Of a stretch of DNA of 64,000 bases, positions 650 through 17,171 are shown piece by piece (position 1 is the first letter of the stretch; every line of letters begins with the position of its first letter). Under the pieces are notes generated by a model. It searched no databases, was not told where the DNA came from, and saw nothing but the letters and a program-made list of their open reading frames with translations. The translations under genes and the position numbers were made by a program. The stretch comes from Vicinamibacteria bacterium. Its GTDB lineage: Bacteria > Acidobacteriota > Vicinamibacteria > Marinacidobacterales > Marinacidobacteraceae. The stretch covers positions 975,385 to 1,039,384 of the forward strand of contig OZ220470.1 of the NCBI GenBank assembly GCA_965115855.1. Direction: 5' to 3'.

Positions 650-1831
650 TCAGGCGCCGAGGTTCTCGAACAACGCCGCGACCCCCATCCCGCCGCTCAC
701 GCACAACGTTGCGATCCCGTAGCGTACCGACCGGCGGTGCATCTCGGCGAGCAGGGTCACCACGATCCGTGCTCCGCTCGCCCCGATGGGATGTCCGAGG
801 GCGATCGCGCCGCCGTTCACGTTGAGGCGCTCCCCATCCAGATCGAGATCCCGCGCGCAAGCGAGCACCTGCGGGGCGAACGCCTCGTTCAGTTCCACGA
901 GCGCCACCTCCCGCAGGGGGACTCCGCTCCGTTGCACCAGGCGCCGCACGGCCGGAACCGGGCCGATTCCCATCACCCGCGGGTCCACTCCGGCGACCGC
1001 GTGCGCCACCAGCCTCGCCGACGGACGAACGCCGCGCGTTCGCGCCGCTTCGCCGGACAGCACCACCATCGCCGCCGCGCCGTCGGTGATGCCGCAGGAA
1101 TTGCCGGCGTGCACCACGCCGCCCTTGCGAAACGACGGAGGGAGCGAAGCCAGCTTCTCCGCCGTAACCCCGTCGCGCGGGTGTTCGTCGCGCACCAGCT
1201 CCGTCCCGCCAACGCGCACCGGAACCAGCTCGGTGTCGAATCGGCCCGCCTGGCGGGCGGCTTCCGCCCGCTGCTGGCTCCGAGCCGCGTACCGGTCGCA
1301 CTCCGGACGCCCGAGGGCATACCGGTCGGCAAGTGTTTCGGCGGTTCCCCCCATGAGCTCATCGGCGAGCGGACAGTGGAATCCGTCCCGAACCATGCCG
1401 TCGAGCAGCTTCCGGCTCCCGAACCCGCCGCCAAAACGAACGTCGGGCAGCAGGTAGGGAGTGTTGCTCATGCTCTCCACCCCTCCCGCGAGCACCACTT
1501 CCGCTTCGCCGAGCCGGATGGAGGCTGCCGCATCAAGGATGGCGCGGAGACCCGAGGCGCAGGCCTGGTTGACCGTCCGCGCCGGAACCTCGTCGGGAGT
1601 TCCGGCCTGTCGTCCGATCTGGCGGGCCGGATTCGGGCCGACTCCGGCCTGACGGGCGTTTCCGAAGATGACCTCGTCCACTTCCCCGGCGCCGATGCCA
1701 GCGGCGTCGAGCGCGGCGCGGCCGGCGATCCCGCCGAGTTCGGGTGCGGTGAGCGGCGCGAGCGCTCCGCCGAAACGGCCGATGGGAGTGCGCCGGGCGC
1801 CGGCGAGCACCACCTCAGGCGCGGCGGACAT
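650..1831 (-). CDS. Acetyl-CoA C-acyltransferase (thiolase II family). It is likely the beta-ketoadipyl-CoA/3-oxoacyl-CoA thiolase of the box pathway.
   Basis: The 393-aa product carries thiolase motifs (NQACASGL, GNSCGITDGAAA, NVNGGAIALGHPIGASG). It lies immediately downstream of boxB on the same strand. Confidence 0.9.
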   Translation of the reverse strand: MSAAPEVVLAGARRTPIGRFGGALAPLTAPELGGIAGRAALDAAGIGAGEVDEVIFGNARQAGVGPNPARQIGRQAGTPDEVPARTVNQACASGLRAILDAAASIRLGEAEVVLAGGVESMSNTPYLLPDVRFGGGFGSRKLLDGMVRDGFHCPLADELMGGTAETLADRYALGRPECDRYAARSQQRAEAARQAGRFDTELVPVRVGGTELVRDEHPRDGVTAEKLASLPPSFRKGGVVHAGNSCGITDGAAAMVVLSGEAARTRGVRPSARLVAHAVAGVDPRVMGIGPVPAVRRLVQRSGVPLREVALVELNEAFAPQVLACARDLDLDGERLNVNGGAIALGHPIGASGARIVVTLLAEMHRRSVRYGIATLCVSGGMGVAALFENLGA

Positions 1832-3242
1832 ACTCGAAGTCCACCGGCTTCCCGTGGACTCCCTGGTTCGGTGCGGCGATCCAGCTCGCCATCTCGCCCG
1901 GCCCGGTCGCCGGAACCATGAGGCGCCTCGTGTACGCGCGGTCCGCCCCGGTGGGCAACCACTCGTTCTGCTTCCGATCCCATTCGGCGGCGGTCAGCAT
2001 CCGGCCGACCGGGTCGAAGGGAACCCCCGCATACACGCCGATCCGGCGATGGAACCGGCGGCTGGGAAGACGAAGCCGATCCGGCAGTCCGGCCTTCTCC
2101 AGGATCCGGTTCCAGCGCGCCACTCCGCGCTCGCAGTCCCGGATGTAGTCGTCGCGGAGCACCTCGTTCATGGCGTTCCAAAGGGGCGTCTCCCGATCCA
2201 CCAGCCGATCCCCCTCCGGCACCGGGATGATGCGAACCCCATCGGCAGCCGCCGGATCGTCGCGGGTGGCCTCCCGCGCCCGCCCCTTCAGCCCGTTCGC
2301 ATGGTAGTTCGCGGCATTCGATGATATTTCGGCGCCGAAGAGGTCGAGCGAGGCACTGAACCAGAAGTTGATGTGCCGCTGCAACAGCTCCAGATCGAAG
2401 GCGCCCGACGCCCGCGGATCCCGCCCCTCGGCGAGCAGGTCCACGATGCGCTGGACGACCCGGGCGATCCCCCGCTCGCCCACCGACATGTGGAACGCCT
2501 CCTCGGTCAGCATGAACCGGGTGGTGCGGGACAGCGGATCGAAGGCGCTCTCGGCCAGCGCCAACAGCTGATACTTCCCGTCGCGGTCGGTGAACATCGT
2601 GAACAGGAAGAAGTTGAGCCAGTCGTCGCACGGCTCGTTGAAAGCCTGCAGGATGCGGGGACGGTCCGGGTCGCCGCTCGTCCGCTCGAGCAGCGCCTCC
2701 GCCTCCTCACGCCCGTCCCGCCCGAAATGGGAGTGGAGCAGGTAGACCATCGCCCACAGGTGCCGGCCCTCCTCGACGTTCACCTGGAACAGGTTGCGGA
2801 GGTCGTACTGGCTGGGCGCGGTCTTCCCGAGCTGGCGCTGCTGCTCGACGCTCGCGGGTTCGGTGTCCCCCTGGGTCACGATCAGCCGCCGGAGGTTGGT
2901 GCGGAACTCCCCGGGGACTTCCTGCCATACCGGCTCGCCGGCGAAGTCGCCGAAGCCGATCCGCCGGTCCGGCTCCGAAGGCGCCAGGAAGATGCCCCAC
3001 CGGTATTCCGGCATCCGCACGAAGTCGAAGTGCGCCCATCCGGAAGGCTCCACCGAGACCGCGGTGCGCAGGTACACGTCGTCGGAGCGGAAGCCGTCCG
3101 GACCCATCTTCCTCCACCAGTCGAGAAAGGCGGGGCGCCAATGCATCAGGGCGCGCTTGAGGCGCCGGTCGGCCGACAGGGCGACGTTGTTGGGGATGCG
3201 CTCGTCGAGTTCGGACACGGGAGACTCCTCAGCAGGTGGCAA
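1815..3242 (-). CDS. boxB: Benzoyl-CoA 2,3-epoxidase (oxygenase) subunit B.
   Basis: The 475-aa diiron-oxygenase-like protein has high apparent similarity to BoxB (e.g. ALMHWRPAFLDWWRKMGPDGF, TEEAFHMSVGERG). It is adjacent to boxC. Confidence 0.8.
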   Translation of the reverse strand: MPPAEESPVSELDERIPNNVALSADRRLKRALMHWRPAFLDWWRKMGPDGFRSDDVYLRTAVSVEPSGWAHFDFVRMPEYRWGIFLAPSEPDRRIGFGDFAGEPVWQEVPGEFRTNLRRLIVTQGDTEPASVEQQRQLGKTAPSQYDLRNLFQVNVEEGRHLWAMVYLLHSHFGRDGREEAEALLERTSGDPDRPRILQAFNEPCDDWLNFFLFTMFTDRDGKYQLLALAESAFDPLSRTTRFMLTEEAFHMSVGERGIARVVQRIVDLLAEGRDPRASGAFDLELLQRHINFWFSASLDLFGAEISSNAANYHANGLKGRAREATRDDPAAADGVRIIPVPEGDRLVDRETPLWNAMNEVLRDDYIRDCERGVARWNRILEKAGLPDRLRLPSRRFHRRIGVYAGVPFDPVGRMLTAAEWDRKQNEWLPTGADRAYTRRLMVPATGPGEMASWIAAPNQGVHGKPVDFEYVRRA

Positions 3243-3248
3243 ACGCCA

Positions 3249-4889
3249 TCAGGTTCTTTCCCAATCGAAGCGCGCGGCAGTCGGCTTTCCATACCCGGTG
3301 AGCGCCCCGCGCTCGCCGGTGGCGTTCGGGCGCTGGAAGATCCAGTTCTGCCACGCGGAGAGTCGTCCGAAGATCTTGGTTTCCAGGGTCTCCGGCCCGA
3401 CAAACCGCAGCGAGGATTCCATCCCGGTGAGGGCGTCGGGAGAGAGGGCCGCCCGCTCCTCGACGGCCACCCGGATCTCCTCCTCCCAGTCCAGATCATC
3501 GGGAGCGAAGGTGGCGAGTCCTTCGCGCTCGGCCTCGCCGGCAACGAGGCGCCCGGTTTTCCGAAGCGCTGCCACCCGCTCCGGCGCCCCGAGGAACCGG
3601 CTGGCCAGCCGACTGAGGCCGTTCCCCATCGGATAGGCGCCGAAGTTGACGCCTGTCAGTTCCACTCCCGCCGGATCGTCGGGGTCGTCGCACAGGTACG
3701 TGCGGTCCGCGGCCAACAGCAACTCGGCGAGCGTGCCGCAAAAGACCGCACCGGAGGCGGCGACGGCGAAAAAACTGCGCGCCGTCTGATCCAGTCGGCG
3801 AAACGTTCGGGCCAGCCTCCACCGGGCCTCGTCCGCAAGCCACGCGCCCTCGAGCGCCGCCAGGCGGGAATCGGCCTCCCGAACCGCATCGGGATCGCCG
3901 GCGGGCTTGACCCGGATGACGCCGATCTCCGGCTGGTGGAAACGCAGGCGCAACAGCGCGTCGTCCAGTTCACGCGCCATGCGCAGATGCCAGAGCCCGG
4001 CGCCGGCGGCGCGGAGCGCCTCCGAAGAATCCGGCTGGGGATCCTCGGGCGCCCGAATGACGAGATCGGCGGTGCGCGCGGTCCGATCCCATTCGAGGTC
4101 CACATGGCGGTAGCGGACGCGCCCCTCGGACTCCTCGGGGTCCAACGGTTCGAGCCGAATGCCGACATCGGCGCGCGCCGGGGACGCCGCGGCCAGCGCC
4201 GCCGCCCGCTCGCCGACGAGACGGTCGAAGGAGCTTCGCGATGCCACGTGGTCCACCAGGCCCCAGCGCAGCGCGCGACGGCCCCGCACCCCCTCGGCGA
4301 GGGTGGCGAACGCGTCCGCCCGATCACGCCGCACCTTCCGCTTGTCCACCAGACGGGTCAGGCCGCCGGTTCCGGGAAGCACGCCGAGGAGCGGCACTTC
4401 GGGGAGCGAGACGCCGGAACTGCCGTCGTCAACCAGCAGGATCTCGTCGGCGGCAAGCGCCAGCTCGTATCCTCCGCCGGCGGTGACCCCGGAGAGGGCG
4501 GCGAGATACCGCTGGCCACTTCGTGCGCTCGCATCCTCGATGCCGAGTCGGGTCTCGTTGGTGAACTTGCAGAAATTGACCTTGAACCCGTGCGAGGCTC
4601 CGGCGAGCATGAAAATGTTGGCGCCCGAAGAGAAGATGCGCGGCATGCGGCTCTTGAGAACGACCGCCCGGACCTTCGGGTGCTCGAAGCGCAGCCGTTC
4701 GACCGCATCCGCGAGTTCGATGTCCACGCCAAGGTCGTAGCTGTTGAGCTTCAGCCGGTAACCGGGACGAAGCCCGCCGTCCTCGTCCACCAGCAACCCC
4801 AGTTCGGCCACCGGCCCCCGAACGTCGAGGGTCCAGTGCCGGTACCGGGAGGGTTCGGTCTCGAACCGGATCGGGGAAAGCGCGGACAT
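3249..4889 (-). CDS. boxC: 2,3-epoxybenzoyl-CoA dihydrolase (benzoyl-CoA-dihydrodiol lyase), crotonase-fold.
   Basis: About 547 aa, starting at MSALSPIRFE. The upstream ORF extension is Arg/Ala-rich junk. The crotonase-family motifs and overall length are typical of BoxC. Confidence 0.75.
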   Translation of the reverse strand: MSALSPIRFETEPSRYRHWTLDVRGPVAELGLLVDEDGGLRPGYRLKLNSYDLGVDIELADAVERLRFEHPKVRAVVLKSRMPRIFSSGANIFMLAGASHGFKVNFCKFTNETRLGIEDASARSGQRYLAALSGVTAGGGYELALAADEILLVDDGSSGVSLPEVPLLGVLPGTGGLTRLVDKRKVRRDRADAFATLAEGVRGRRALRWGLVDHVASRSSFDRLVGERAAALAAASPARADVGIRLEPLDPEESEGRVRYRHVDLEWDRTARTADLVIRAPEDPQPDSSEALRAAGAGLWHLRMARELDDALLRLRFHQPEIGVIRVKPAGDPDAVREADSRLAALEGAWLADEARWRLARTFRRLDQTARSFFAVAASGAVFCGTLAELLLAADRTYLCDDPDDPAGVELTGVNFGAYPMGNGLSRLASRFLGAPERVAALRKTGRLVAGEAEREGLATFAPDDLDWEEEIRVAVEERAALSPDALTGMESSLRFVGPETLETKIFGRLSAWQNWIFQRPNATGERGALTGYGKPTAARFDWERT

Positions 4890-4950
4890 TGCGGAATTAT
4901 GGCGTTTCGGGGTTTCGAGGCCGGCCGGCTCACGGTGGAATAATCGGCGG

Positions 4951-6906
4951 ATGCCGGAAGTCGCGCGGAGACGGACCGGCAACCGGTGGGCGCGCGCCGG
5001 CGCCCTCGCTCTCGCCGCCCTCCTGATTGCCGCACAGCCGCCGAACCAGTTCATCGAGCCCGATGCGCGGCTGGAGCTCGGGACGGCCCTCGCCCTCCCG
5101 CGAACGCTCGACTACGACATCGCGCCGGACGGACGGCGGGTGGTGCTCTCGGTGGCGATGCGGAACCGGGCGGTGCTGTTCCTGACCGCTCCCGGCGCCA
5201 CTCCCGGAATTCTGACCGGAGGGCGGCGGTGGGACACATCTCCCCGCTTCCTGCCCGACGGGACCACGGTGGTGTTCGTCGCCGGACGCCGTCCGCGGGG
5301 AGACGATCCGGCGGTCGGGGCGCTCCATCGGATGCCGCTCGGCGGGACTCCGGAGCGACTGACGCCGGAGGGGCTCGAGGCCCGGGAACCGGCAGTGGCC
5401 CCGGACGGCGAACGGGTGGCGTTTCTCGGCCGCGACCGGGAGACCCGACCCGAAGCCGGGTTCGATGTCTGGATCACGGGCGGGGGAGAGACCCGGCGAC
5501 TCACCGGGGCGCCGGGGGACGAGGGCGCCCCTGTCTGGTCGCCCGACGGGTCCCGCATCGCCACGGCGATGGAGACCGACGAGCACCGGATGCTCGCCGT
5601 GGTTCCGGCGGCGGGCGGCGACCCGGTGTTTCTCGCCGAAGATCCCAGCGGGCCGGCCGCCTGGACCCCGGACGGGAACAGCTTGGTCTGGGCCGGTCCG
5701 TGGGACGGTTTCGACGCTCTCCTCCAACGGGACGCGCAAGCGGTCGGTCCGATCCGGCCGCTGGTCACGGAGGACCGGGACCTCGGACAACCCGCCTTTC
5801 GCCCGACCGGCGCGGAACCGGAGCTGGCCTGGATCGAAGCGGATCGGGGCGACTATCGGATCCACCGTTCCCCGGTCGAACCGCACCCCGACGGCGGATG
5901 GCGAATCACCGGACGCGCCCGCCCCCTGCATCGGGGAGGCGGGGTCCATGACCGCCTCCGGTGGACCAACGACGGCGAGGCCCTGGCGGCGCTCTTCGAG
6001 TCTTCCGCCTTCCCGCGGGACGTGTGGGTGTTTCCCCGGGCCGGCGGACGGGAACGCATGAGTGACACCATCTTTCCCGATCTCGACGTCCGGGCCTTCG
6101 CGCGGCCGGAACGGATCGAGGGGGCGGAGGCCGACGGGTTCCTCCACCGGCCGGTGGGAATGGATGCCGAGGCGCCGCTCGTCGTCTACCTGACCGGAAC
6201 CGACGGCGTGGCCTCCCGGAACGGATTTTCGCCCCTGATCCAGCTACTCGCGGTAGAGGGGTACGCCGTCCTCGCCCCCACCCTCCCCGGCGGCGACGGG
6301 CGCGGGCAGCGGTTCCGCGACCGGAACGACCGGGACTGGGGAGGCGCCGATCGGGATGCGCTGGCAGCGATGACCCGGCTCGTCCTCGAACAGCCCGGAA
6401 TCGCCGACCGCGCCTGCGTGTTCGGCGTTCACTATGGCGGATTCCTCGCGCTCGCGGCGCTTTCCCGCCATCCGGATCTTTTCGCCTGCGGCATCGAGGC
6501 CATGGGATTCGCCGACCTGCCCGAGCTGTACCGCAACCTCGACCCCGGGCGGCGACAACTGCTCGAACGGGAATTGGGGCCGCTCCGGGGGAATCTGGAG
6601 CTCTACCGGCGACTGTCCCTCCGGGGAGGTGGAGAAACGGTCACCGCGCCGCTGTTGTCATTCCACGGAGAGGAAGTCCCCGAAGCACCGCTCGAGGCGA
6701 AACGCGGATTCCTCGAAGAGCTGCGAAGGCGGCCGCAGTATCCCCTGCTCGACATGTTCTTCCGTCACGACCGGGGTCGCGCGCTCTTTCGATTCGAAAC
6801 CGACCGGATCGCGTACCACGCCTTCCTCGACCGGGTTCTGGAATTCCTCTCCCTCCACTTGCCGAAGTCCCCCGGCGCACAGAACCCGGCCGACGCAGTC
6901 CGGTAG
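4951..6906 (+). CDS. Secreted S9 family serine peptidase (acylaminoacyl-peptidase-like) with an N-terminal TolB/WD40-like beta-propeller.
   Basis: Signal peptide ALALAALLIAAQPP. Propeller repeats of the DG..vvF form. C-terminal alpha/beta hydrolase with GVHYGGFLA (GxSxGG nucleophile elbow). Confidence 0.8.
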   Translation: MPEVARRRTGNRWARAGALALAALLIAAQPPNQFIEPDARLELGTALALPRTLDYDIAPDGRRVVLSVAMRNRAVLFLTAPGATPGILTGGRRWDTSPRFLPDGTTVVFVAGRRPRGDDPAVGALHRMPLGGTPERLTPEGLEAREPAVAPDGERVAFLGRDRETRPEAGFDVWITGGGETRRLTGAPGDEGAPVWSPDGSRIATAMETDEHRMLAVVPAAGGDPVFLAEDPSGPAAWTPDGNSLVWAGPWDGFDALLQRDAQAVGPIRPLVTEDRDLGQPAFRPTGAEPELAWIEADRGDYRIHRSPVEPHPDGGWRITGRARPLHRGGGVHDRLRWTNDGEALAALFESSAFPRDVWVFPRAGGRERMSDTIFPDLDVRAFARPERIEGAEADGFLHRPVGMDAEAPLVVYLTGTDGVASRNGFSPLIQLLAVEGYAVLAPTLPGGDGRGQRFRDRNDRDWGGADRDALAAMTRLVLEQPGIADRACVFGVHYGGFLALAALSRHPDLFACGIEAMGFADLPELYRNLDPGRRQLLERELGPLRGNLELYRRLSLRGGGETVTAPLLSFHGEEVPEAPLEAKRGFLEELRRRPQYPLLDMFFRHDRGRALFRFETDRIAYHAFLDRVLEFLSLHLPKSPGAQNPADAVR

Positions 6907-7071: not shown

Positions 7072-7742
7072 CCGCGGCGGCGCTCCACAGCTTCGGCGCT
7101 CCGCAACTTCGACACTCCACAACGTCGGCACTCCACAACGTCGGCGCTCCATAGCGGCGGCACTCCGCAGCGGCGGTGCTCCACAGCTTCGGCGCTCCGC
7201 AACGGCGGTGCTCCACAGCTTCGGCGCTCCGCAGCGGCGGCGCTCCACAGCGGCGGCACTCCACAGCGGCGGCACTCCACAGCGGCGGCACTCCGCAGCG
7301 GCGGCGCTCCGCAGCGGCGGCGCTCCGCAGCTTCGGCGCTCCGCAGCGGCGGCACTCCACAGCGGCGGCACTCCGCAGCGGCGGCACTCCACAGCGGCGG
7401 CACTCCACAGCGGCGGCACTCCACAGCGGCGGCACTCCACAGCGGCGGCACTCCGCAGCGGCGGCGCTCCGCAGCGGCGGCGCTCCGCAGCTTCGGCGCT
7501 CCGCAGCGGCGGCACTCCACAGCGGCGGCACTCCGCAGCGGCGGCACTCCACAGCGGCGGCACTCCACAGCGGCGGCACTCCACAGCGGCGGCACTCCAC
7601 AGCGGCGGCACTCCGCAGCGGCGGCACTCCGCAGCGGCGGCGCTCCGCAGCTTCGGCGCTCCGCAGCTTCGGCGCTCCGCTGCGGCGGCGCTCCGCTGCG
7701 GCGGCGCTCCGCAGCTTCGGCGCTCCGCTGCGTCGGCGCCAC
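7072..7742. repeat. Tandem array of about 42 copies of a 16-bp unit (consensus CAGCGGCGGCACTCCR). The minority variants are CAGCTTCGGCGCTCCG and CAACGTCGGCACTCCA.
   Basis: Direct reading of the sequence. The array sits in the convergent intergenic region between the S9 peptidase gene and lipA. It is why all six frames stay open across 6.6-8.8 kb. Confidence 0.9.
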
Positions 7743-7811
7743 ACCTCCCACCGATCCGATCGACCCGCCTGCCGGAGGGCGGTCTCCCCGATACGAACGG
7801 CTTCCCGCTCG

Positions 7812-8720
7812 TCAGCCCCCGTCCGCTTGCGCGGGGATCTGGTTCGCGGCGTGGTACGAGCTGCGGACCAGCGGTCCGGCCTCGACATGCCGCAGTCCCA
7901 TCGCCCGACCCCGCCGCGCCAGCGCGTCGAACTCGGGAGGCGGGACGAACCGCGCCACCGGCAGGTGCTTCCGCGTCGGCTGGAGATACTGCCCGGCGGT
8001 CAGGATGTCCACCCGGATGTCCACCAGGTCGCGCATCACCTCGTCGAGCTCGCTCTCGGTCTCTCCGAGGCCCAGCATGACACCGGTCTTGGTGATGACA
8101 CCGGAAGACCGACCCTTGGCCCGCGCCAGCAATTCGAGCGAACGCCGGTAGCGGGCGCCGGGTCGGACCCGACGGTAGAGCCGGGGGACGGTCTCGACGT
8201 TGTGGTTCAGGATCTCCGGAGCCTCGTCCATGACCCGGTCGAGGGCCTCGTCGACGCCCTGGAAGTCCGGGATCAGCACCTCGATGGTGGTTCCCGGACA
8301 CCGGGCCCGCACCGCCCGGATGGTGGCCGCGAAGATTCCCGCGCCTCCGTCGGGGAGGTCGTCGCGGTTCACCGAGGTGATCACGGCGTGGCGGAGACCC
8401 ATGACTTCCACCGCCCGGGCGACACGCTCCGGCTCCCCGTGATCGAGCCCCTCCGGCAGACCGGTGGTGACCGCGCAAAAGCCGCACGCCCGGGTGCAAA
8501 CGTCGCCGAGGATCATGAAGGTGGCAGTCCCCTCCCCCCAACACTCGGCCATGTTGGGACAGCGGGCCTCCTCGCAGACGGTATGGAGTTCCTGCTCCCG
8601 GAGCAGCTGCCGGAGCCGCGACCAGGTACCCCCGGAGGGGAGCCGCACCCGCAGCCAGGGAGGACGACGCTCGCTCCCGGACGGATCGGCCGGGACGACC
8701 GGGAGCGGAAGCTCGCTCAA
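7812..8720 (-). CDS. lipA: Lipoyl synthase.
   Basis: Radical-SAM CxxxCxxC motif (CTRACGFC) plus the N-terminal cysteine motif (CEEARCPNMAEC). Typical length of 302 aa. Confidence 0.9.
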   Translation of the reverse strand: MSELPLPVVPADPSGSERRPPWLRVRLPSGGTWSRLRQLLREQELHTVCEEARCPNMAECWGEGTATFMILGDVCTRACGFCAVTTGLPEGLDHGEPERVARAVEVMGLRHAVITSVNRDDLPDGGAGIFAATIRAVRARCPGTTIEVLIPDFQGVDEALDRVMDEAPEILNHNVETVPRLYRRVRPGARYRRSLELLARAKGRSSGVITKTGVMLGLGETESELDEVMRDLVDIRVDILTAGQYLQPTRKHLPVARFVPPPEFDALARRGRAMGLRHVEAGPLVRSSYHAANQIPAQADGG

Positions 8721-11014
8721 GAGTCCCCGGAAGGCCAGTTCTCCAGGCGTTCCCTGACCCGGCCCATGAACTGGTCGGCGACCGCGCCGTCAATCAGGCG
8801 GTGATCAAAGGAAAGCGCCAAGAAGACCATCGACCGTACCGCAATGGCGTCGGACTCCACCACCACCGCCCGCTTGTGGACCCCGCCGATCCCGAGAATG
8901 GCCGACTGGGGCTGGGCGATGATGGGGGTTCCGAAGAGCGACCCGTACGGACCGGGATTGGTGATGGTGAACGTGCCGCCCTCCAGATCGGAGAGTTCGA
9001 TCTCCCCCTTCCGGGCGCGCCCCGAAAGGTCGGCGATGCCCCGCGCGATCCCCGTGAAGTTGCGTTCGTCGGCGCGCTCCAGGACCGGAACCACCAGGCC
9101 GTCCGGCAGGGCGACCGCGATGCCGAGGTGCACCGAGGAGTGATACACGATCCGGTCGTCCCGGAGCGACGCGTTCAGGATCGGAAACTCGGAAAGGGCC
9201 TCGATGGCGGCCGCGGCGAAATACGGCATCAGGGTGAGCCGGATGCCGTAGCGCCGCTCCATGTCCCCGCGCCGGGCGGCGCGCGCCGCAACCACCCGCG
9301 ACATGTCCACCTCGAACACCGTGGTGACGTGCGCGGAAGTGCGCCGCGAACGGACCATGTGTTCGGCAATGGCGCGGCGCATCGGCGTGAGCGGTTCGGT
9401 GCGGACGCCTTCCGGCAGTGCCGGCGGCGGTTCGGAGGGCGGCGATTCGGCAACCGGATCCGGGGCCTGCGGCTCCGGCTTCCCGGGTTCGGATTCCTTC
9501 CCCGCTGTTTCGATGTAGTCCTGGATGTCCTGTCGGGTAACCCGGCCCCCTTCCCCGGATCCGTGGACATCGGCGAGATCCACCCCGTGCTCGCGCGCGA
9601 TGCGACGGACGAGCGGCGAGCTCCGTGGACGACGGCGATCCTTCGCTCCGGACGAATCGGCGGCCGGGGGCTCGGGTTCCGCCGGGGCTCCCTCCGGCGT
9701 GGCTTCCCCGGACGACGCGCCGTCGCCGGGGGACCAGTCCTCGCCTTCGGCAGCGATCCGGCCCACCACCGTGTTCACTTCCACGGTGTTGCCTTCGGGC
9801 ACGAGGATCTCCACCAGGCGGCCGGACAGGGCGGCCGGAACCTCGGTGTCCACCTTGTCGGTGGCGATGTCGAAGAGGGGATCGTCACGGGCGACCGTCT
9901 CACCGACCGGGATGCGCCACTTGGTGATGGTTCCCTCGGTGATGCTCTCGCCCATCTGCGGCATGACCACGTCTGTTGGCACGGTGCGGGAATAGTACTC
10001 GGAGCGCCTGCGCCGATCGCGCACCAGTTCCCGCGCCGCCGCCAGCACCTCGGCGTGCGAAGGCAGGTGTTCCGCCTCCAGCCGGGGGGCGTAGGGAACC
10101 GGAGTGTCGCGGGCGGCGATCCGGCGGACCGGCGCCACCAGCTGCTTCCACCCATGTTCCGCGACCTGGGCGACGACCTCGCCGCCGAATCCACCGGTCC
10201 GGTTCGCCTCGTGTGCAACCAGCAATCGGCCGGTGCGCTCCACCGAATCGAGAATCGCCTTCAGGTCGAGGGGCGCGAGGCTGCGGAGGTCCAGAACATC
10301 CGCGTTGATCCCCTCGGCGGCCAGATCGACGGCCGCCTGTTCGACGAGCTGCATCGCGCCGCCCCAGGCCACGAGGGAAATGTCGGAGCCGTTCCGCACC
10401 CGCCGCGCCTGCCCGAGCGGTACGCACTCGGGCCCGGCCTCCCACTCCGACTCGGCAAGGCGAAGGCTGCGGTAGAGGCGCTTGTGTTCCAGGTAGAGCA
10501 CCGGATCGTCGTCGCGAATCGCGGTGCGCAGCAGGCCGGCCGCATCCGACACCGTCGCTGGCGCCACCACCCGGAGGCCGGGAGTGTGGAGGAAGAAGGC
10601 CTCGGGATTCGCCGAGTGGAACGGTCCGGCGCCCACCCCGGCGCCCGCCGGGCCGCGCAGCACCATCGGGACCGCCATGCCCGTGCGGTAGCGGCTCTTG
10701 GCGGCGAAGTTGGTGATCATGTTGAAGGCGCTGGCGATGAAGTCCATGAACTGGAACTCCACCACGGGGCGGAAACCCTCGAATGCGAGCCCCACCGCGA
10801 TGCCGGTGAATCCCTCCTCGCTGATCGGGGTGTCCATCACCCGGGACGGACCGAAGTCGGCGAGAAACCCCTCGGTGAGGCGGAAGGCGCCCCCGTAGGC
10901 GCCGATGTCCTCGCCCAGCAGCAACACCCGTTCGTCCCGCTCCATCTCCGACCGGAGCGCCCGCCGAATCGCTTCCAGATAGGTCACTCCCGGGCGTACC
11001 GGCGCGTCAGACAT
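8717..11014 (-). CDS. 2-oxoacid dehydrogenase E1 beta subunit fused in frame to the E2 dihydrolipoyl acyltransferase (lipoyl domain, E3-binding domain and catalytic domain).
   Basis: A single ORF with no stop between them. The E1beta part is residues MSDAPVRPGVTYLEAI..AAARELV. An RRRRSEYYSRT linker follows. Then comes a lipoyl domain (MPQMGESITEGTITKW..DKVD), the PSBD (SSPLVRRIAREHGVDLADVHGSGEGGRVTRQDI), and the catalytic DHRLIDGA motif. A GGAAGGAG Shine-Dalgarno sequence sits 9 nt before the ATG at 11014. The first 63 codons of the tracked ORF are treated as a non-coding extension. Confidence 0.7.
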   Translation of the reverse strand: MSDAPVRPGVTYLEAIRRALRSEMERDERVLLLGEDIGAYGGAFRLTEGFLADFGPSRVMDTPISEEGFTGIAVGLAFEGFRPVVEFQFMDFIASAFNMITNFAAKSRYRTGMAVPMVLRGPAGAGVGAGPFHSANPEAFFLHTPGLRVVAPATVSDAAGLLRTAIRDDDPVLYLEHKRLYRSLRLAESEWEAGPECVPLGQARRVRNGSDISLVAWGGAMQLVEQAAVDLAAEGINADVLDLRSLAPLDLKAILDSVERTGRLLVAHEANRTGGFGGEVVAQVAEHGWKQLVAPVRRIAARDTPVPYAPRLEAEHLPSHAEVLAAARELVRDRRRRSEYYSRTVPTDVVMPQMGESITEGTITKWRIPVGETVARDDPLFDIATDKVDTEVPAALSGRLVEILVPEGNTVEVNTVVGRIAAEGEDWSPGDGASSGEATPEGAPAEPEPPAADSSGAKDRRRPRSSPLVRRIAREHGVDLADVHGSGEGGRVTRQDIQDYIETAGKESEPGKPEPQAPDPVAESPPSEPPPALPEGVRTEPLTPMRRAIAEHMVRSRRTSAHVTTVFEVDMSRVVAARAARRGDMERRYGIRLTLMPYFAAAAIEALSEFPILNASLRDDRIVYHSSVHLGIAVALPDGLVVPVLERADERNFTGIARGIADLSGRARKGEIELSDLEGGTFTITNPGPYGSLFGTPIIAQPQSAILGIGGVHKRAVVVESDAIAVRSMVFLALSFDHRLIDGAVADQFMGRVRERLENWPSGDS

Positions 11015-11735
11015 CGGGCAGCGCTCCTTCCGGGGCGGGGAGCAGCCGACGACCGAACACCCGGGCAATCGAGGCGGCGAGGCGGTCGGTGAACCGGTCG
11101 AGTGACGGGCGGCGCCCGGTCTCCGCTTCCAGCGACGTGATCCGGCAGCCGCTGATACCGCAGGGCACGATCCGGTCGAACCAGCGGAGGTCGCACCCCA
11201 CATTCACCGCGACGCCGTGGCTCGTGACCCACCGCGCCACCCGCACGCCGATCGCCGCCAGCTTGCGGGAATCGGCCTCCGCGCCCCCGCACCAGACCCC
11301 GGTGCATCCGGGCCGGCGCCCGGCAGCAACCCCGTAACCGGACACCGCCTCAATCACCGCCTGCTCGAGGGCCCGGAGATAGGCGCGGACATCCTTCCTC
11401 CAGTGGCGAAGGTCGAGGATCGGATAGGCCACCAGCTGACCGGGGCCATGGAAGGTCACATCCCCGCCCCGGTCGGTCTCGCACACCTCGGCACCCATCC
11501 GTTCCGGAGCAAGGAGCAGATGGCGGGGGTCGGCCACCGTGCCGAGCGTGTATACCGGCGGATGTTCGGTGAGCAGCAGGACATCCGGGATCTCGTCACG
11601 CTGGCGCCGGGCGACCAGCTCGCGCTGGGTCTTCACCCCGTCCCGGTAGGGGAGCGGTTTGCGGTCCAGCCGCCAGAGCGCCGGGCGGGGATCGGTCGCC
11701 CGGCGGGCGCCGTCACCCGAAGCGAACGGGGACAC
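11007..11735 (-). CDS. lipB: Octanoyl-[ACP]:protein N-octanoyltransferase.
   Basis: LipB family motifs (LLLTEHPPVYTLG, KLAAIGVRV, GCDLRWFDRIVPCG). Its stop lies 2 nt before the E1beta-E2 start. Confidence 0.85.
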   Translation of the reverse strand: MSPFASGDGARRATDPRPALWRLDRKPLPYRDGVKTQRELVARRQRDEIPDVLLLTEHPPVYTLGTVADPRHLLLAPERMGAEVCETDRGGDVTFHGPGQLVAYPILDLRHWRKDVRAYLRALEQAVIEAVSGYGVAAGRRPGCTGVWCGGAEADSRKLAAIGVRVARWVTSHGVAVNVGCDLRWFDRIVPCGISGCRITSLEAETGRRPSLDRFTDRLAASIARVFGRRLLPAPEGALPDV

Positions 11736-11746
11736 CTGGACGCCGC

Positions 11747-13171
11747 TTAGGCGTGGAGCGGCGACCCCAGCGCGGCGAGGGCCGCCTCGGCGAGCGCTTC
11801 AGAAAGCGTCGGATGGGCGTGGACACTTCGCGCCAGCGATTCGAGAGTAGCCTCGTGCTCCAGCGCCACCACCGCCTCGGCAATGAGATCGGTGGCGTGC
11901 GGGCCGACGATATGCACCCCCAGAACCTCCCCGTAGCGCGCCTCCGCGACGACCTTCACGAAGCCGGTCAGATCTCCAAGGATGTTGGCCTTGCTGTTCG
12001 CCGCAAAGGGGAACTTCCCGACCTTGATCTCCTGCCCGGTCTCGCGGGCGGCCGCTTCGGTCAGGCCGACCGAACCGACCTCGGGAAAGCAGTAGGTGGC
12101 AGCGGGAATCCGCTCCCGCGCGAGCGGCTCGCCCGGTTCGCCGGCGAGGCAGCGCACCGCCGCTTCCGCCTCGGCGGAGGCGAGGTGGGCGAGCTGTGCG
12201 GTCGCGACCACGTCCCCGATGGCAAGGACTCCGGGAGCGGAAGTCCGGCCGAAGCCGTCCACCGGGATGAAGCCACCCTTGCCGGTGGTGATCCCGACGG
12301 TCTCGAGACCGATGTCCGCCGTCCGGGGCGCCCGGCCCACCGCCACCAGCAACCGGTCGTAGCGGGCGACCGAGGTCGCATCCGCGCCGGCCTCCCGAAC
12401 CCGCACCGAGACGCCCCCCTCCGTCACCTCCACGGATTCCACCGCCGCCCCGGTGCGGACCCCGATCCGCTGCTTGCGGAGGGACTTGCCCACGACGTCG
12501 GAGACTTCCTCGTCCTCGAGCGGGAGAACCCGGGGCATCACCTCGAACAGGTCCACATCGCTGCCGTAGCTCCGAAACATCGTGGCGAACTCGGTTCCCA
12601 CCGCTCCGGCGCCGATGATTCCGAGCCGCCCGGGACATTCGGGCAGACGGAACATCTCGGCGTTGGTCAGGATGCGTTCCCCGTCGAGGGGCAGGAACGG
12701 GCGGGTTCGCGCCGTCGAACCGGTGGCGACGAGCACGCTCCCGGCCTCGTATTCCCGAACGCCTGCCCCGGTGGTGACCGTCACCCTTCCCGGGCCGGCG
12801 AGCCGTCCGTACCCCTTGAGCGCGACCACCCCGTTTCGCTTCAGGAGCAATCCGACCCCGCCCGCCAGCTTGCGAATGACCCGGTCGGCGCGGCGGTTGA
12901 GCGCCTTCCAGTCGAGGACCGGCTCGCCGATCTCGACTCCGTGCCCCTTCGCGGCACGCATGTCGTTGAGCAGGGAGGCGGTATGCAGGTACACCTTGCT
13001 GGGAATGCACCCAACGTGCAAGCAGGTTCCTCCGAAATGCGCATCCTTTTCGATGATCGCGGTGCGGAGCCCCCGGGAAGCCGCCTTGATCGCGGCCACG
13101 TATCCGCCGGGCCCACTCCCGATCACGACAACGTCAAACGTGGAACGGGGCGCCTCCGGCGAATCGGGCAT
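11747..13171 (-). CDS. lpdA: Dihydrolipoyl dehydrogenase (E3).
   Basis: FAD motif GSGPGGYVAAIKAA, redox-active disulfide GTCLHVGCIPSK, and a C-terminal HAHPTLSE interface motif. Confidence 0.9.
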   Translation of the reverse strand: MPDSPEAPRSTFDVVVIGSGPGGYVAAIKAASRGLRTAIIEKDAHFGGTCLHVGCIPSKVYLHTASLLNDMRAAKGHGVEIGEPVLDWKALNRRADRVIRKLAGGVGLLLKRNGVVALKGYGRLAGPGRVTVTTGAGVREYEAGSVLVATGSTARTRPFLPLDGERILTNAEMFRLPECPGRLGIIGAGAVGTEFATMFRSYGSDVDLFEVMPRVLPLEDEEVSDVVGKSLRKQRIGVRTGAAVESVEVTEGGVSVRVREAGADATSVARYDRLLVAVGRAPRTADIGLETVGITTGKGGFIPVDGFGRTSAPGVLAIGDVVATAQLAHLASAEAEAAVRCLAGEPGEPLARERIPAATYCFPEVGSVGLTEAAARETGQEIKVGKFPFAANSKANILGDLTGFVKVVAEARYGEVLGVHIVGPHATDLIAEAVVALEHEATLESLARSVHAHPTLSEALAEAALAALGSPLHA

Positions 13172-13309
13172 GACAGTCGGCGGAGAATGGTATGTCGCCC
13201 GGTGTGCCCGGGATCATGATAGAATGGACAGATTCCGCGTTTCCGCGTCAGGGCGGATTCCAATCAGGGTTATCCCGATCCCGGCCGTCGGTGCGACGGG
13301 GCACCCCAC

Positions 13310-13918
13310 ATGACTGAATCGGAGCGGCGCGAGGCAGCCCGAAGCGGCCTCGGTGGAACCACCCCGGTTCGTCGCGCCGGGCGCAACGAACCGTTTCTGG
13401 CGCATCGGCGGGGCGGCCCGCCAGCAACCCGAACCGAGCGGGAACCCGAGCCGGAGCGCGAATTCGAGACTGTTGCCCTGAAGGAAGGGGGAGACGCGGC
13501 GACGACGCCGTCGACCGATCGCGAAAGCCGGCGGGAGCGAAAGCAGCGGGAACTGGATTCGTTTCCCATCGCGCGCATGCTGGGGCTTCGCCTTGATTAC
13601 GCCGAAAACGGCGTATCGCGTATCCACCTGCCAGCCGGTCGCCAGGACACGACCCACGGACCGATGGAGGGAAGCGTGGCGGGAACGATGGTGGTTGCCG
13701 CCGGACACTTCGCGGCTTCGTCGGTGGCGCCGAACGCGGCGCTGCCGCTCGTCGAGTTCAAGCTGAACCTGCTTTCGGTGGTGCAGGGCGAGCTGTTGGC
13801 GATCGGGGAGGTCGTCCGCAAGGGACGTACGCTCATCAGCTGCCGCATCGAGATCGTCGAGGACAATGACCGCACCATCGCGGTGGGCCTCGCGACCTAC
13901 CTGAACCAGGTCCCCTGA
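13310..13918 (+). CDS. PaaI/YbgC-like hotdog-fold thioesterase with a charged, low-complexity N-terminal extension. The true start may be internal.
   Basis: C-terminal 120 aa (FPIARMLGLRLDYAENGVSRIHLP...GRTLISCRIEIVEDNDRTIAVGLATY) is typical of PaaI-type 4HBT thioesterases. Confidence 0.55.
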   Translation: MTESERREAARSGLGGTTPVRRAGRNEPFLAHRRGGPPATRTEREPEPEREFETVALKEGGDAATTPSTDRESRRERKQRELDSFPIARMLGLRLDYAENGVSRIHLPAGRQDTTHGPMEGSVAGTMVVAAGHFAASSVAPNAALPLVEFKLNLLSVVQGELLAIGEVVRKGRTLISCRIEIVEDNDRTIAVGLATYLNQVP

Positions 13919-15257: not shown

Positions 15258-17171
15258 CTACCCGCCCCCGGCTTCGTCGTTCTCGGTGACCGTCACCGTC
15301 ACGCTGCCGATCGTCACCGAGTCGTAACCGCCGCCGCTCGCCCCATGCGTCAACACCACATCGGGGTCCGCCGTTGCGTCCTCGTCCTCCGCCGCCGATA
15401 CCGTCACCGTCTGTGGCGTGGCGTAGTTTGCGGGCGTGAAGGTCAGCGGCGAACCCGCCACCGTCACGTCACCCGAAGCGCCACCCACCGTCACCGACAC
15501 GTCCGCCGACGGTTCCGCGTTCAGCGCCACGGTGTACGTGCCGGCACCGCCTTCCACCACGGTCAGCGTGGGCGTCGAGATCGTCACTCCAGCGACAGCG
15601 GCCTCAATGGCCTCGACCGGTGTTGCGGTCACCTCGTCGGAAGCCGCCCCGATGCCGCCCGTCGCATCCGCCCGCGCCCGAATCCGGAAGCCGTGGACCG
15701 TGTCGTTTCCCAGATTCGTGATCGTGTGCGTCGTCGTCGGCGCACCGGACCCGTCGATGACCGTCCACGACCCGTAGCTGCCGCTACCGATTTTCTGCTG
15801 GACCTCCCAGCCCGTGACCTTTTCCACGGCGGCGGCGGCATTCCAGCCCAGGGTGACCGACCCGTCGCCCGCGGTGGCGGCAAGGCCCGTCGGCTTGCCC
15901 GGCGGACCGATCCAGACCCCGGTCGCATCGGACGGCGGGCCGGCCGCATCGCCGTTCAACGCCCGGATGCGCAATTCCCTGAGACCCACGACGGACTCGG
16001 GAAGAACCAGGCTGCCCGGCTGATCCCCGGCTTCGTCAGGGTCGTCGGGACGCGCCGGTATCGGTTCGGTTGGAGCCCACTCCCCATCACCCCATGTCCC
16101 GTCTGCGGTTTTCATCTGGTATTCCAATGCGTCCAGATCCCCGCAGCCGATCGGAATTCCTGCGTGGACTGTCAAGGCCCGGGGGCTGGAATCGGAGGAG
16201 GGGCCGGTGGCGTCCACGATCTCGATCTGGCACGGTGGCACATCCGGGGTCGCCTTCACTTCCACCGAATCCGCGCCCGGAATGGCGCCGTTCCTTGCCC
16301 GCACCTGGAACGCATGGGCCAATCCGTTCGTCAGGCCGGTGACCACATGGCGAGACGTGGACATACCCGATTCGGGGATAACGGTCCAGTCCCCGTAATC
16401 GTCCGCGCCCGTCTGCTGCCGGACCTGCCAGCTGGTGATGCTGGCATTCACCGATTCGTCCCAGGCAAGCGTCACCTGGCGATCTCCCGCAGCGGCAGCG
16501 AGCCCGGCGGGCGCGGCGGGAGCGCCGTCGTCGTCGACAACCGTCACGGTGATCGTTCCCGCGGTCCACGACTCGACCTCGGCCGCGTCGTTCGGAAGGG
16601 CCTTGAACGTCAGCGTCACGTCGCTCCCGTCGTCCGTGTCGCCGAGGATGCCGAAGGTGAACGTCGCGGTTGTCTCGCCAGGGGCAATCGTGACCGTGGT
16701 CCCCTTCGGCCAGCACATGTCGGCGCCCGTCGGATCCGGAGTGTCGCAACCGCCGGCGATCCCGATCACGCCGAATGTTCCCGTGCTGCTTTCCGCGACC
16801 GGTTCCATGTTCACCACCAGGCCACCATCCACCGCTTCCCCGAGCGTGACCGTGATGGCGATCTCGGTCACGCCGGAGTCCCCCTCGGTGAACGACGTCG
16901 TGGAGGCCGACAGCGTGATGGTCTTGCCACCGGCGTCCTGGGCCGCCGCCGTATTCGGCGATTCCGCAGCTGCAACCGGTGCTGGCGCCCGGGCCGGCGC
17001 GCGAGCCGCGGCGGGAACCCTCGGAATGGAGGGCGTGGTGGGACCGGACGACCCGCAGCCCCCCGACCCGAAAAGGCCCACGATGGCAAGCGCCAGGCCA
17101 CCGCGCCCGATCCGCCGTTCCGGCACCCGCGCTCCGCAGCAAAAGAAAGACCGGATGTACCTGTGATTCAT
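15258..17171 (-). CDS. Large surface lipoprotein with a Calx-beta-like N-terminal domain, three fibronectin type III domains and a conserved C-terminal beta-domain (paralog A).
   Basis: Lipobox LALAIVGLFGSGGCGSS at the start MNHRYIRS. FN3 signatures (WQVRQQTG..WTVI..TSRHVVTGLTNG..HAFQVRARN). N- and C-terminal blocks are shared with the 29514..33755 gene. Confidence 0.75.
   Translation of the reverse strand: MNHRYIRSFFCCGARVPERRIGRGGLALAIVGLFGSGGCGSSGPTTPSIPRVPAAARAPARAPAPVAAAESPNTAAAQDAGGKTITLSASTTSFTEGDSGVTEIAITVTLGEAVDGGLVVNMEPVAESSTGTFGVIGIAGGCDTPDPTGADMCWPKGTTVTIAPGETTATFTFGILGDTDDGSDVTLTFKALPNDAAEVESWTAGTITVTVVDDDGAPAAPAGLAAAAGDRQVTLAWDESVNASITSWQVRQQTGADDYGDWTVIPESGMSTSRHVVTGLTNGLAHAFQVRARNGAIPGADSVEVKATPDVPPCQIEIVDATGPSSDSSPRALTVHAGIPIGCGDLDALEYQMKTADGTWGDGEWAPTEPIPARPDDPDEAGDQPGSLVLPESVVGLRELRIRALNGDAAGPPSDATGVWIGPPGKPTGLAATAGDGSVTLGWNAAAAVEKVTGWEVQQKIGSGSYGSWTVIDGSGAPTTTHTITNLGNDTVHGFRIRARADATGGIGAASDEVTATPVEAIEAAVAGVTISTPTLTVVEGGAGTYTVALNAEPSADVSVTVGGASGDVTVAGSPLTFTPANYATPQTVTVSAAEDEDATADPDVVLTHGASGGGYDSVTIGSVTVTVTENDEAGGG

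Follow-up and report, generated by a model that had tools for sequence, protein, structure and literature searches.

The window, i.e., the whole stretch of 64,000 nucleotides analysed here, carries on its minus strand the translationally coupled operon lpdA-lipB-[E1b-E2]-lipA. Its first gene, lpdA (11747-13171), encodes dihydrolipoyl dehydrogenase (E3; Pfam Pyr_redox_2/Pyr_redox_dim; TIGR01350 with 505 bits, cut-off 408.8). It is followed by lipB for lipoyl(octanoyl) transferase (11007-11735; LplA-B_cat; NF010925 with 197 bits, cut-off 155), by a fused E1-beta/E2 gene (8717-11014), and by lipA for lipoyl synthase (7812-8720; Radical_SAM and LIAS_N; TIGR00510 with 382 bits, cut-off 310). The assignments of LpdA, LipB and LipA were based on curated NCBIfam cut-offs, which all three proteins passed, and the flanking genes named in an earlier note on this DNA were thus the right ones. 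The fused gene starts with ATG at 11014-11012, encodes 765 amino acids plus a stop codon and is preceded, 9 nt upstream of the ATG, by a Shine-Dalgarno sequence (GGAAGGAG, 11024-11031, read off the sequence). The earlier note gave no strand and had placed a gap of 2 nt between lipB and the start of the fusion; actually, lipB with its TGA at 11009-11007 overlaps the fusion ATG by 8 nt (ATGTCTGA). At the other end the TTG start of lipA overlaps the TGA of the fusion (TTGA). A generic scan of positions 7600-13500 for promoters and terminators yielded no hits. There is also a longer ORF of 828 amino acids from position 11203; it overlaps lipB, and its additional N-terminus was without any match. 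The GC content of the fusion ORF (GC3 0.85 versus GC2 0.53) identified it as a real coding sequence.

ORF list, translation and Pfam agreed with the first description of one ORF in which E1-beta is joined to a complete E2. The E1-beta module (amino acids 1-332; 10019-11014) consists of PYR and C-terminal domains (Transket_pyr 10-182, 2.4e-39; Transketolase_C 201-322, 1.1e-34). In isolation it passed NCBIfam model NF006667 (323.9 bits, cut-off 321), and it matched 1um9_B (2.8e-85) and 1w85_B (1.4e-82) in the PDB. Glu66 (TPISE) and His133 (PFHS) align with Glu59-beta and His128-beta of the Geobacillus stearothermophilus E1p (1w85_B), which we take to be the catalytic glutamate contacting N1' of ThDP and the proton donor histidine, respectively. 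For H128-beta the function of a proton donor was described (PMC2663715). A linker of 12 residues (333-344; DRRRRSEYYSRT; 9983-10018) leads to the lipoyl domain (345-422; 9749-9982; Biotin_lipoyl 348-420, 2.9e-17), whose extent was derived from Pfam and the alignment to unfused E2 N-termini and which carries the lipoyl-lysine K387 in ATDKVD (384-389) with the TDK motif present. The PSBD (464-498; 9521-9625; E3_binding, 1e-15) and the E2 acyltransferase catalytic domain (537-765; 8720-9406; 2-oxoacid_dh 537-760, 6.7e-75) follow, the latter with the DHRxxDG motif as DHRLIDG at 737-743 (FDHRLIDG 736-743). All Pfam families of an E1-beta (PF02779 and PF02780) and of an E2 (PF00364, PF02817 and PF00198) are represented. 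The best PDB match of the E2 part was 9y7v_D (353 bits). In the AF2 model of the whole protein E1-beta (pLDDT mostly 80-97, last helix 320-332), lipoyl domain and PSBD (helices 467-475 and 494-507, pLDDT 76-92) were confident. Residues 336-344 between the confident E1-beta and lipoyl domain showed a pLDDT below 50 and no secondary structure, and the linker is accordingly predicted to be disordered and flexible. As the pLDDT of the catalytic domain was 25-50, we refrained from fold searches and oligomer inference with this model.

The protein is identical (100 %) to P0001, whose source contig comprises 3,016,700 bp. The same in-frame fusion within the same operon was found on two other large contigs of 2.91 and 2.86 Mb (P0002, P0003; proteins 78-79 % identical), so that the question of the earlier note whether orthologues are also fused can be answered with yes. 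Synteny around the fusion was identical on these three independent contigs of about 3 Mb, with intact neighbouring genes. The codons of the linker have diverged among the three fused genomes, one of which (L002) carries an in-frame GGG insertion, i.e., an indel of 3 nt, and the reading frame was kept throughout. At a dS of 0.4-0.8 between the fused genomes, dN/dS was 0.13-0.27 for E1-beta, 0.06-0.13 for the lipoyl domain, 0.12 for the PSBD and 0.15-0.18 for the catalytic domain, while the linkers gave 0.16-1.24 and the E1-beta to lipoyl domain linker 0.69-1.24. By this measure purifying selection acts on every domain (0.06-0.27). Together with the retained motifs and catalytic residues this predicts that E1-beta as well as the lipoyl, PSBD and catalytic domains are functional.

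The origin of the linker became visible in comparison with unfused relatives. Their E1-beta ends with ...RLxRY*, and their E2 begins at GTG (VPTDVIMPQMGES); this ancestral E2 start is retained in the fusion (9982-9980) as the first codon of the lipoyl domain. In L003, L004, L006, L007 and L009 the 5' flanking DNA of E2 can be aligned to the 18 nt at the 3' end of the linker, including a TA[GC]N[AC]T box. Of the clade members, 8 of 8 possess a TAGAAT-like box at a distance of 7-9 nt before their E2 GTG, with TAnnnT and GTG kept in the fused genes. The outgroup L021 has a colinear unfused operon with a spacer of 39 nt. From this alignment the linker can be read as the former non-coding 5' flank of E2, and stop-codon loss of E1-beta with read-through of the roughly 40-nt spacer is therefore the most likely origin of the fusion. 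An ancestor of the order lpdA-lipB-E1b-(~40 nt)-E2-lipA would have lost the terminal Tyr codon and the stop codon of E1-beta; the spacer, which contained a -10-like element shortly before the E2 GTG, would then have been read through into a flexible linker of 12-13 residues. The GAG TAC TAT TCC codons (10000-9989), whose unusual AT-richness had been pointed out before, indeed appear in the DNA alignment of the 8 clade members as a relic of the -10-like, non-coding element that preceded the E2 start of the ancestor (TACTAT, 9992-9997). An origin via inversion of E2-lipA, inferred from L003 and L004, was considered less likely given the colinear unfused operons of L006 and the outgroup L021; the inversion more probably is derived in the sister lineage.

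The conserved box and start would also allow for a dual output, in which a retained internal promoter or start (TACTAT, 9 nt, GTG345) yields free E2 from a leaderless transcript next to the 82-kDa fusion, and the core is a mixture of E1-beta-bearing and plain E2 chains. This reading is compatible with our main explanation, draws on the conservation described above and on the low synonymous change in the linker (pS 0.19-0.33), and we nevertheless regard it as rather unlikely. The generic sigma-70 scan found no promoter, a -35 box was not recognisable, neither GTG345 nor ATG351 is preceded by a Shine-Dalgarno sequence, and the box itself has drifted from TAGAAT to TACTAT or TACCAT. Moreover, constraint at the protein level on Tyr-Tyr/His-Ser-Arg could explain the conservation in this very small sample.

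The earlier claim that no E1-alpha gene lies nearby was found to hold for the complete 64-kb window, in which tblastn with an E1-alpha query gave nothing at E<1 and Pfam scans of the ORFs detected neither E1_dh nor other proteins with thiamine-diphosphate (PP) domains. In L001-L004, L006, L009 and L021 no E1-alpha was present at a distance of up to 10 kb from the cluster, and tblastn with the E1-alpha query against all loci found none for the clade of the fusion. A protein search with a Vicinamibacteria E1-alpha returned only Vicinamibacteria matches of 78 % identity or more. As E1-alpha is likewise missing from the surroundings of the cluster in relatives whose genes are not fused, the operon without E1-alpha predates the fusion and characterises the lineage; it was not brought about by the fusion. 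Because E1-beta retains the catalytic Glu and His, we presume that E1-alpha (PF00676), the partner contributing the diphosphate-binding domain, is encoded at another place in the genome. The 14 other Terriglobia and Gemmatimonadota loci with E1-beta and no adjacent E1-alpha indicate that E1 genes are commonly scattered in these phyla. The consistent absence of E1-alpha near the cluster in all members of the wider clade, as well as the loss of the conserved C-terminal aromatic residue, would also fit a real fusion whose E1-beta module is no decarboxylase subunit at all: E1-alpha would be gone from the genome, and the module would be vestigial or structural on an E2 serving another E1. We consider this improbable, since purifying selection acts on E1-beta in the fused genes and its catalytic residues are kept, since scattered E1 genes are common, and since E1-beta is the best conserved protein of the cluster compared to distant relatives (56-58 % identity; lipA is close with 56-61 %, lpdA and E2 reach 45-51 %).

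The earlier note had left the choice between a genuine fusion and an indel artefact; the former stood and the latter did not, since fused orthologues with diverged junction codons and a conserved frame settle the question for a genuine fusion. That a sequencing or assembly indel erased the E1-beta stop codon of two really separate genes might seem plausible from the tiny E1-beta/E2 gaps of most relatives (11 nt in L089, 39 nt in L021) and from the false fusions of this gene pair produced by long-read indels (L005/P0118; P0416), but is hardly credible for three different genomes from different samples, one of them with about 170x coverage according to the label of its contig, in which sense codons replace the terminal Tyr codon and stop of E1-beta in 3 of 3 cases, the linkers vary in numerous codons and through an indel of one whole codon with all remaining in frame, adjacent genes are intact and no junk sequence follows the junction. 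The false fusions themselves were recognised as follows. P0118 (526 amino acids; E1-beta, lipoyl domain and PSBD), a candidate for a second fused lineage, results from a long-read frameshift on a contig with fragmented lpdA and E2, and P0416 (532 amino acids) is an E1-beta with a junk tail. The clean Vicinamibacteria contig L089 carries separate genes for E1-beta (324 amino acids) and E2 (433 amino acids). Overall, the fusion is genuine and vertically inherited in the lineage of an uncultured, soil-type bacterium of the Acidobacteriota, and we consider it probable, from comparative sequence data, that it arose by spacer read-through and functions by recruiting E1-alpha.

The complete architecture of E1-beta, lipoyl domain, PSBD and catalytic domain was represented by 1 cluster among 1.84 billion representative proteins, in agreement with its previous description as non-standard, and literature searches for E1-beta-E2 fusions found no relevant report. 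The complex as such is known, while its architecture here is a real and new variant. The pyruvate dehydrogenase of G. stearothermophilus and the 2-oxoacid dehydrogenase of Thermus thermophilus (1w85, 3duf, 1um9) share with it the PYR and C-terminal domains of E1-beta, the order LD-PSBD-CAT of E2, the conserved Glu59-beta and His128-beta and an E3 gene in the operon. In these systems, however, E1-beta is a separate protein docking non-covalently with its C-terminal region on the PSBD, with the E1-alpha gene immediately upstream, whereas in the fusion a covalent bond connects E1-beta with the lipoyl domain N-terminus, the aromatic C-terminus is gone and the operon is without E1-alpha. To our knowledge, OdhA/Kgd is the only well-studied natural E1-E2 fusion of this enzyme family. 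In this protein of the Actinobacteria the E2o catalytic domain is fused to E1o (PMC8740704; bioRxiv 10.1101/2020.07.24.212647). OdhA/Kgd resembles our fusion in the non-canonical C-terminal tails of its E2 partners and may also do so in their non-canonical cores; it differs in the reversed order (E2 catalytic domain N-terminal to E1), a homodimeric SucA-type E1, and the lack of lipoyl domain and PSBD, as it uses the lipoyl domains of E2p. With an E1-beta of the heterotetrameric type and 101 bits for model NF008907 (cut-off 878) the fusion is not of the OdhA/Kgd type. Similarly, alphaproteobacterial PdhB (NF008854, a model of 464 residues) carries a lipoyl domain covalently on E1-beta, but N-terminally and as an extra domain, with a separate E2, while in the fusion the lipoyl domain lies C-terminally and leads on into a complete E2. 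The lipoyl domain of the fusion aligned to residues 1-109 and E1-beta to 143-462 of that model, and 369 bits remained below the cut-off of 454, so the fusion does not belong to the lipoyl-E1-beta type. E1-alpha/E1-beta fusions (P0146, 693 amino acids, "2-oxoisovalerate dehydrogenase E1 component"; P0226, P0229, P0255, P0265), whose E1-beta parts are 48-52 % identical to the one studied here, also unite adjacent genes of one operon, but join two E1 subunits and leave E2 separate. Sporadic, putative partial E1-beta-E2 fusions have E2 parts following E1-beta, namely P0228 and P0140 (E1-beta and CAT), P0232 (E1-alpha, E1-beta, PSBD and CAT; 3 cluster members) and P0152 from Streptomyces sp. NPDC057002 (WP_382485037.1; E1-beta, LD and partial CAT in one chain). 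None of them possesses the complete set of LD, PSBD and CAT; with 39-44 % identity they are no close relatives, and most are singletons.

In 2-oxoacid dehydrogenase complexes non-covalent docking to the PSBD alone keeps E1 on the E2 core, and it has long been asked what the stoichiometry of E1 is, how it competes with E3 and how far the swinging lipoyl arm reaches. The fusion represents a natural test of this wiring. The E1-beta modules of two chains would dimerise and recruit two E1-alpha encoded elsewhere, yielding an alpha2-beta2 decarboxylase covalently anchored to the E2 scaffold. Docking of a free E1-beta C-terminus to the PSBD would not be needed, the beta:E2 stoichiometry would be fixed at 1:1, the lipoyl domain would be kept within roughly 12 residues of E1, and the PSBD would be left free for E3 (LpdA). 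The PSBD was reported to bind E1-beta at its C terminus, an end that points towards the core (PMC11754459). In 114 of 115 unfused E1-beta homologues this end is an aromatic residue (Y, F or W), replaced by D, Q or E in the fused proteins, and we infer that the non-covalent docking of E1-beta was lost in the fusion. The lipoyl domain site lies near the N-terminal region of E1-alpha, on a different side of E1 than the C-terminal region of beta (PMC11754459), and a tether of 12 residues is perhaps short for contacts in cis between the lipoyl domain and the E1 active site. The best PDB match of E1-beta is a branched-chain-type enzyme of Thermus; for E2 the top matches resemble SucB or DlaT, with all of them below the NCBIfam cut-offs. 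This difference in type renders the substrate assignment ambiguous; the substrate is probably pyruvate, with a branched-chain 2-oxoacid as an alternative.

The genes for E1-beta and E2 adjoin in thousands of genomes, often only a few nucleotides apart, and the loss of one stop codon could fuse them. That just one cluster with a complete fusion exists among 1.84 billion suggests that such a fusion is normally selected against. In this lineage it was kept across roughly 20 % protein divergence and thereby offers a natural construct with a 1:1 ratio of beta to E2, a lipoyl domain 12 residues from E1 and an E1-free PSBD, useful for models of active-site coupling and the engineering of compact pyruvate dehydrogenase complexes. 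The locus also is a clean example of how an intergenic spacer with a putative promoter became the linker between two domains.

A comparison of E2 tails revealed that the C-terminus of the fusion (...RLENWPSGDS) appears to be without the usual hydrophobic knob and has no aliphatic residues after W. Trimers of E2 are joined into 24- or 60-mers by a C-terminal hydrophobic 3-10 "knob" helix. Among solved structures, the hexameric DlaT of M. tuberculosis is the nearest relative of this E2. The tail resembles the insertion-type tails of Actinobacteria (10.1101/2020.07.24.212647). It is a speculative and doubtful thought that the covalent link and the knobless tail together specify a new, small and closed pyruvate dehydrogenase architecture, possibly with three alpha2-beta2 E1 tetramers, made from the fused beta modules, as bridges between two E2 trimers. 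If true, there would be no exchange of E1 and only E3 would use the PSBD, in a self-scaffolding complex unlike the 24-mer/60-mer paradigm.

The fused gene lies on the minus strand of the window (67 % G+C) and runs from an ATG at 11014 to a TGA at 8719-8717, encoding 765 amino acids. A GC3 of 0.85 showed strong third-position GC bias, and a ribosome-binding site (GGAAGGAG) was found 9 nt 5' of the ATG on the same strand. Pfam placed Transket_pyr at residues 10-182, Transketolase_C at 201-322, Biotin_lipoyl at 348-420, E3_binding at 464-498 and 2-oxoacid_dh at 537-760. The domain order is a whole E1-beta followed by a whole E2, and the single ORF described in the earlier note was borne out by ORF, translation and Pfam order. 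The linker DRRRRSEYYSRT occupies residues 333-344, between the E1-beta module and the lipoyl domain (LD), and the sequence across the junction reads ...ELVRDRRRRSEYYSR/TVPTDVVMPQMGESITEGTITK. Together with lpdA (11747-13171), lipB (11007-11735) and lipA (7812-8720), all on the minus strand and above their NCBIfam cut-offs, the fused gene forms a tightly packed same-strand operon. The end of lipB overlaps the fusion start by 8 nt (ATGTCTGA) and is not separated from it by a 2-nt gap, as had been stated; the fusion stop is overlapped by the TTG start of lipA.

A sequencing indel at the junction had been considered as an alternative to a genuine fusion. In a search for fused orthologues among 5.8 billion proteins, three matched over the full length: the window's own protein P0001 (3,016,700-bp contig), P0002 (79 % identical; 2,909,185-bp contig, ERZ25072448 ctg25120) and P0003 (78 % identical; 2,864,726-bp contig, ERZ25068685 ctg6959). 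The next best were ordinary E2 proteins of 433-457 aa with 64-68 % identity. Both fused relatives stem from separate ENA samples and share the lpdA-lipB-fusion-lipA context with intact neighbours. In the codon alignment dS among the three genes was 0.4-0.8, and the linker held many substitutions, including a whole-codon GGG insertion at one fused locus (L002), with the frame unbroken throughout. The dN/dS values were 0.13-0.27 for the E1-beta module, 0.06-0.13 for the LD, 0.12 for the PSBD (peripheral subunit-binding domain), 0.15-0.18 for the catalytic domain (CAT) and 0.16-1.24 for the interdomain linkers, with 0.69-1.24 for the linker between E1-beta and LD. Purifying selection acts on all the folded domains; the stretches that link them change faster. 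Long-read indel artefacts looked different. An apparent fusion of E1-beta, LD and PSBD (P0118; L005:5286-10255) was rejected as such, as lpdA and E2 were shattered there; on a clean Vicinamibacteria contig E1-beta (324 aa) and E2 (433 aa) are separate genes 11 nt apart. Likewise rejected was P0416, where E1-beta runs into a nonsense Gly/Pro/Arg-rich tail. Since three genomes share the in-frame fusion with diverged linkers, conserved domains and intact neighbours, we conclude that it is genuine and kept by selection.

The earlier note had called the architecture non-standard, and this view was strengthened. When the full protein was scored against 1.84 billion cluster representatives (listing floor 305 bits), the only full-length match was P0003 (1255 bits, query residues 5-764), and the second match (542 bits) covered the E2 alone. 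Proteins carrying both halves should score above this floor. A search with the E1-beta module alone omitted P0001-P0003 despite 80-100 % identity, hence missing from the matches listed does not mean absent. Among the matches listed, other architectures included E1-alpha/E1-beta fusions and a 478-aa protein (P0161) whose E1-beta match begins about 150 residues in, as expected for a lipoyl/E1-beta arrangement judged by position only. Partial fusions of E1-beta and CAT were P0228 (601 aa) and P0140 (594 aa). P0232 (1022 aa; three cluster members, drawn from ENA and Logan) combines E1-alpha, E1-beta, PSBD and CAT without a lipoyl domain. The Streptomyces sp. NPDC057002 singleton P0152 (WP_382485037.1), named 'E2' in RefSeq, carries E1-beta, LD and a truncated CAT, with no PSBD match in the domain scan; a deletion probably created this fusion, within an operon of the bkd type. 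The complete LD-PSBD-CAT set was not found in any of these four proteins. Full-text literature searches gave no description of an E1-beta/E2 fusion. Among studied proteins the nearest precedent is OdhA of Actinobacteria, a fusion of E2o-CAT and E1o that has no lipoyl domain (PMC8740704; 10.1101/2020.07.24.212647). The fusion is a new architectural form of a well-known enzyme complex. In public data it is confined to three genomes, which belong to a single uncultured lineage of Acidobacteriota; organism names were taken from related records.

The origin of the linker was traced by comparison with unfused relatives (66-71 % E1-beta identity), in which E1-beta ends in ...RLxRY-stop and E2 starts with a GTG, encoding VPTDVIMPQMGES. 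The same GTG is codon 345 in the fused genes. Aligning the 75 nt before this GTG in eight clade members, the final 18 nt of the linker were found homologous to the non-coding E2 5' flank of the unfused genomes. The window reads TACTAT TCCCGCACC GTG (9980-9997) and the other fused loci (L001, L002) TACCAT..., while the unfused loci read TACACT TCCGCCGCC GTG (L003:7985-8003), TAGAAT TCCCCGC(C/T)C GTG (L004:7985-8003; L009, on its minus strand), TAGAAT TCGAGTT GTG (L006:9985-10003) and TAGAAT TCGGGTC GTG (L007:9985-10003). A -10-like box (TAGAAT/TACACT/TACTAT) thus precedes the E2 GTG by 7-9 nt in 8/8 members, which suggests a leaderless transcript of E2, with lipA, in the unfused relatives. The AT-rich junction codons, previously noted as unusual, are accounted for as a relic of this box. 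The E2-lipA pair is inverted in L003, L004 and L009. In L006 the genes are colinear with a 1.2-kb insertion separating E1-beta from E2; a 240-aa repeat-rich protein is encoded there (L006:9068-9790; SEERT repeats, C-terminal transmembrane helix), for which no family match was obtained. The outgroup L021 (Acidobacteriota STL-ACI10, 58 % E1-beta identity) showed a plain colinear operon, lpdA-lipB-E1-beta-39 nt-E2-lipA, and its spacer agrees in length with the 12-13 linker codons. The most economical history would be loss of the terminal Tyr codon and stop of E1-beta, after which a spacer of about 40 nt would be read through to give the linker.

The lack of a nearby E1-alpha gene was confirmed: neither tblastn (E<1) nor Pfam scans of the 64-kb window showed a homologue. 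In about 60 of 80 GTDB loci recovered with the E1-beta module, E1-alpha lies directly upstream of E1-beta, in the order lpdA-(lipB)-E1-alpha-E1-beta-E2; in the clade of the fusion, lipB takes this place. In L001-L004, L006, L009 and L021, too, no E1-alpha was detected closer than 10 kb to the cluster. As unfused relatives lack it there, the E1-alpha-less operon is older than the fusion. E1-beta with unrelated neighbours was seen in 14 other Terriglobia and Gemmatimonadota loci. By alignment, Glu66 and His133 correspond to Glu59-beta and His128-beta in the Geobacillus enzyme (PMC2663715), and compared to distant relatives E1-beta is the best-conserved protein of the cluster, with lipA near behind. 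The retained catalytic residues, this conservation and purifying selection indicate that the module still functions as a subunit of a decarboxylase; E1-alpha would then presumably be encoded at another genomic site.

In canonical complexes the E2 PSBD docks onto the C-terminal part of E1-beta, at the core-facing molecular two-fold axis, and the LD engages E1 close to the E1-alpha N-terminal region (PMC2663715, PMC11754459). In 114 of 115 full-length unfused E1-beta homologues (drawn from P0394-P0513) the C-terminal residue was aromatic (Y 105, F 8, W 1), presumably tied to PSBD docking; the commonest ending was ...RLAAY-COOH. All three fused proteins have D, Q or E here, and their chain runs on. 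AlphaFold2 modelled E1-beta confidently with its final helix ending at residue 332, residues 336-344 as unstructured with low confidence, and LD and PSBD both confidently. From the lost aromatic residue and the flexible linker predicted between confident domains we infer that the covalent tether has taken over from non-covalent E1-PSBD docking. Each E2 chain would bear one beta module, paired modules would dimerise and recruit two E1-alpha subunits, and the PSBD would remain free for LpdA. The LD would work from an anchor 12 residues off E1, raising its local concentration at reductive acylation, the rate-limiting step, and may serve its own E1 or a neighbouring one. The isolated E1-beta scored just above the cut-off of the PDH E1-beta subfamily; its best solved relative is a Thermus branched-chain-type enzyme, and the E2 half is nearest to M. 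tuberculosis DlaT. Pyruvate and branched-chain 2-oxoacids are both candidate substrates.

Judged by sequence, the E2 tail of the fused clade (...RLENWPSGDS; window 8720-8750) has no hydrophobic C-terminal knob, the element through which E2 trimers assemble into 24-mers or 60-mers. Related E2s of Acidobacteriota (among P0004-P0120) likewise show no knob helix and terminate in RLENWPEGDLKP or LENWSEDIG. By sequence, these tails resemble those of actinobacterial E2p, with a Phe-containing insertion; such E2p forms trimers or hexamers (10.1101/2020.07.24.212647; PMC12995895). For the E2 half, the top PDB match was 9y7v, a 553-residue PDH acetyltransferase chain; its length and the F547-E548-A549 positions cited in 10.1101/2020.07.24.212647 lead us to regard it as M. 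tuberculosis DlaT. Given the missing knob, the actinobacterial-like tail and this match, the oligomeric state of the fused E2 is uncertain, and one might speculate that a knobless E2 with covalent E1-beta forms an unconventional small complex.

Around the operon, a block at 650-6906 encodes an S9 peptidase (PD40 repeats), an enoyl-CoA hydratase-like protein of about 546 aa, a 467-aa PaaA/PaaC-like protein and a thiolase. It adjoins the cluster in the window, L001, L002, L004, L006 and L007, and stays put across the clade even with E2-lipA inverted. The stretch 18399-20741, some 5 kb upstream from the operon, holds a fragment of an ISL3-family transposase and an intact transposase of the Mutator family; L002 likewise carries ISL3 and IS4 transposases nearby. 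Directly downstream of groES-groEL, the region 51435-57311 may be a defence island, with a Schlafen AlbA_2/HATPase_c_4 protein, a family-less 554-aa protein and an AAA_15/AAA_21 (AbiEii-like) ATPase. Fibronectin-III and Calx-beta domains occur in a 1548-aa protein encoded at 29514-34160 (minus strand), and a second fn3 protein is encoded at 15258-17201.
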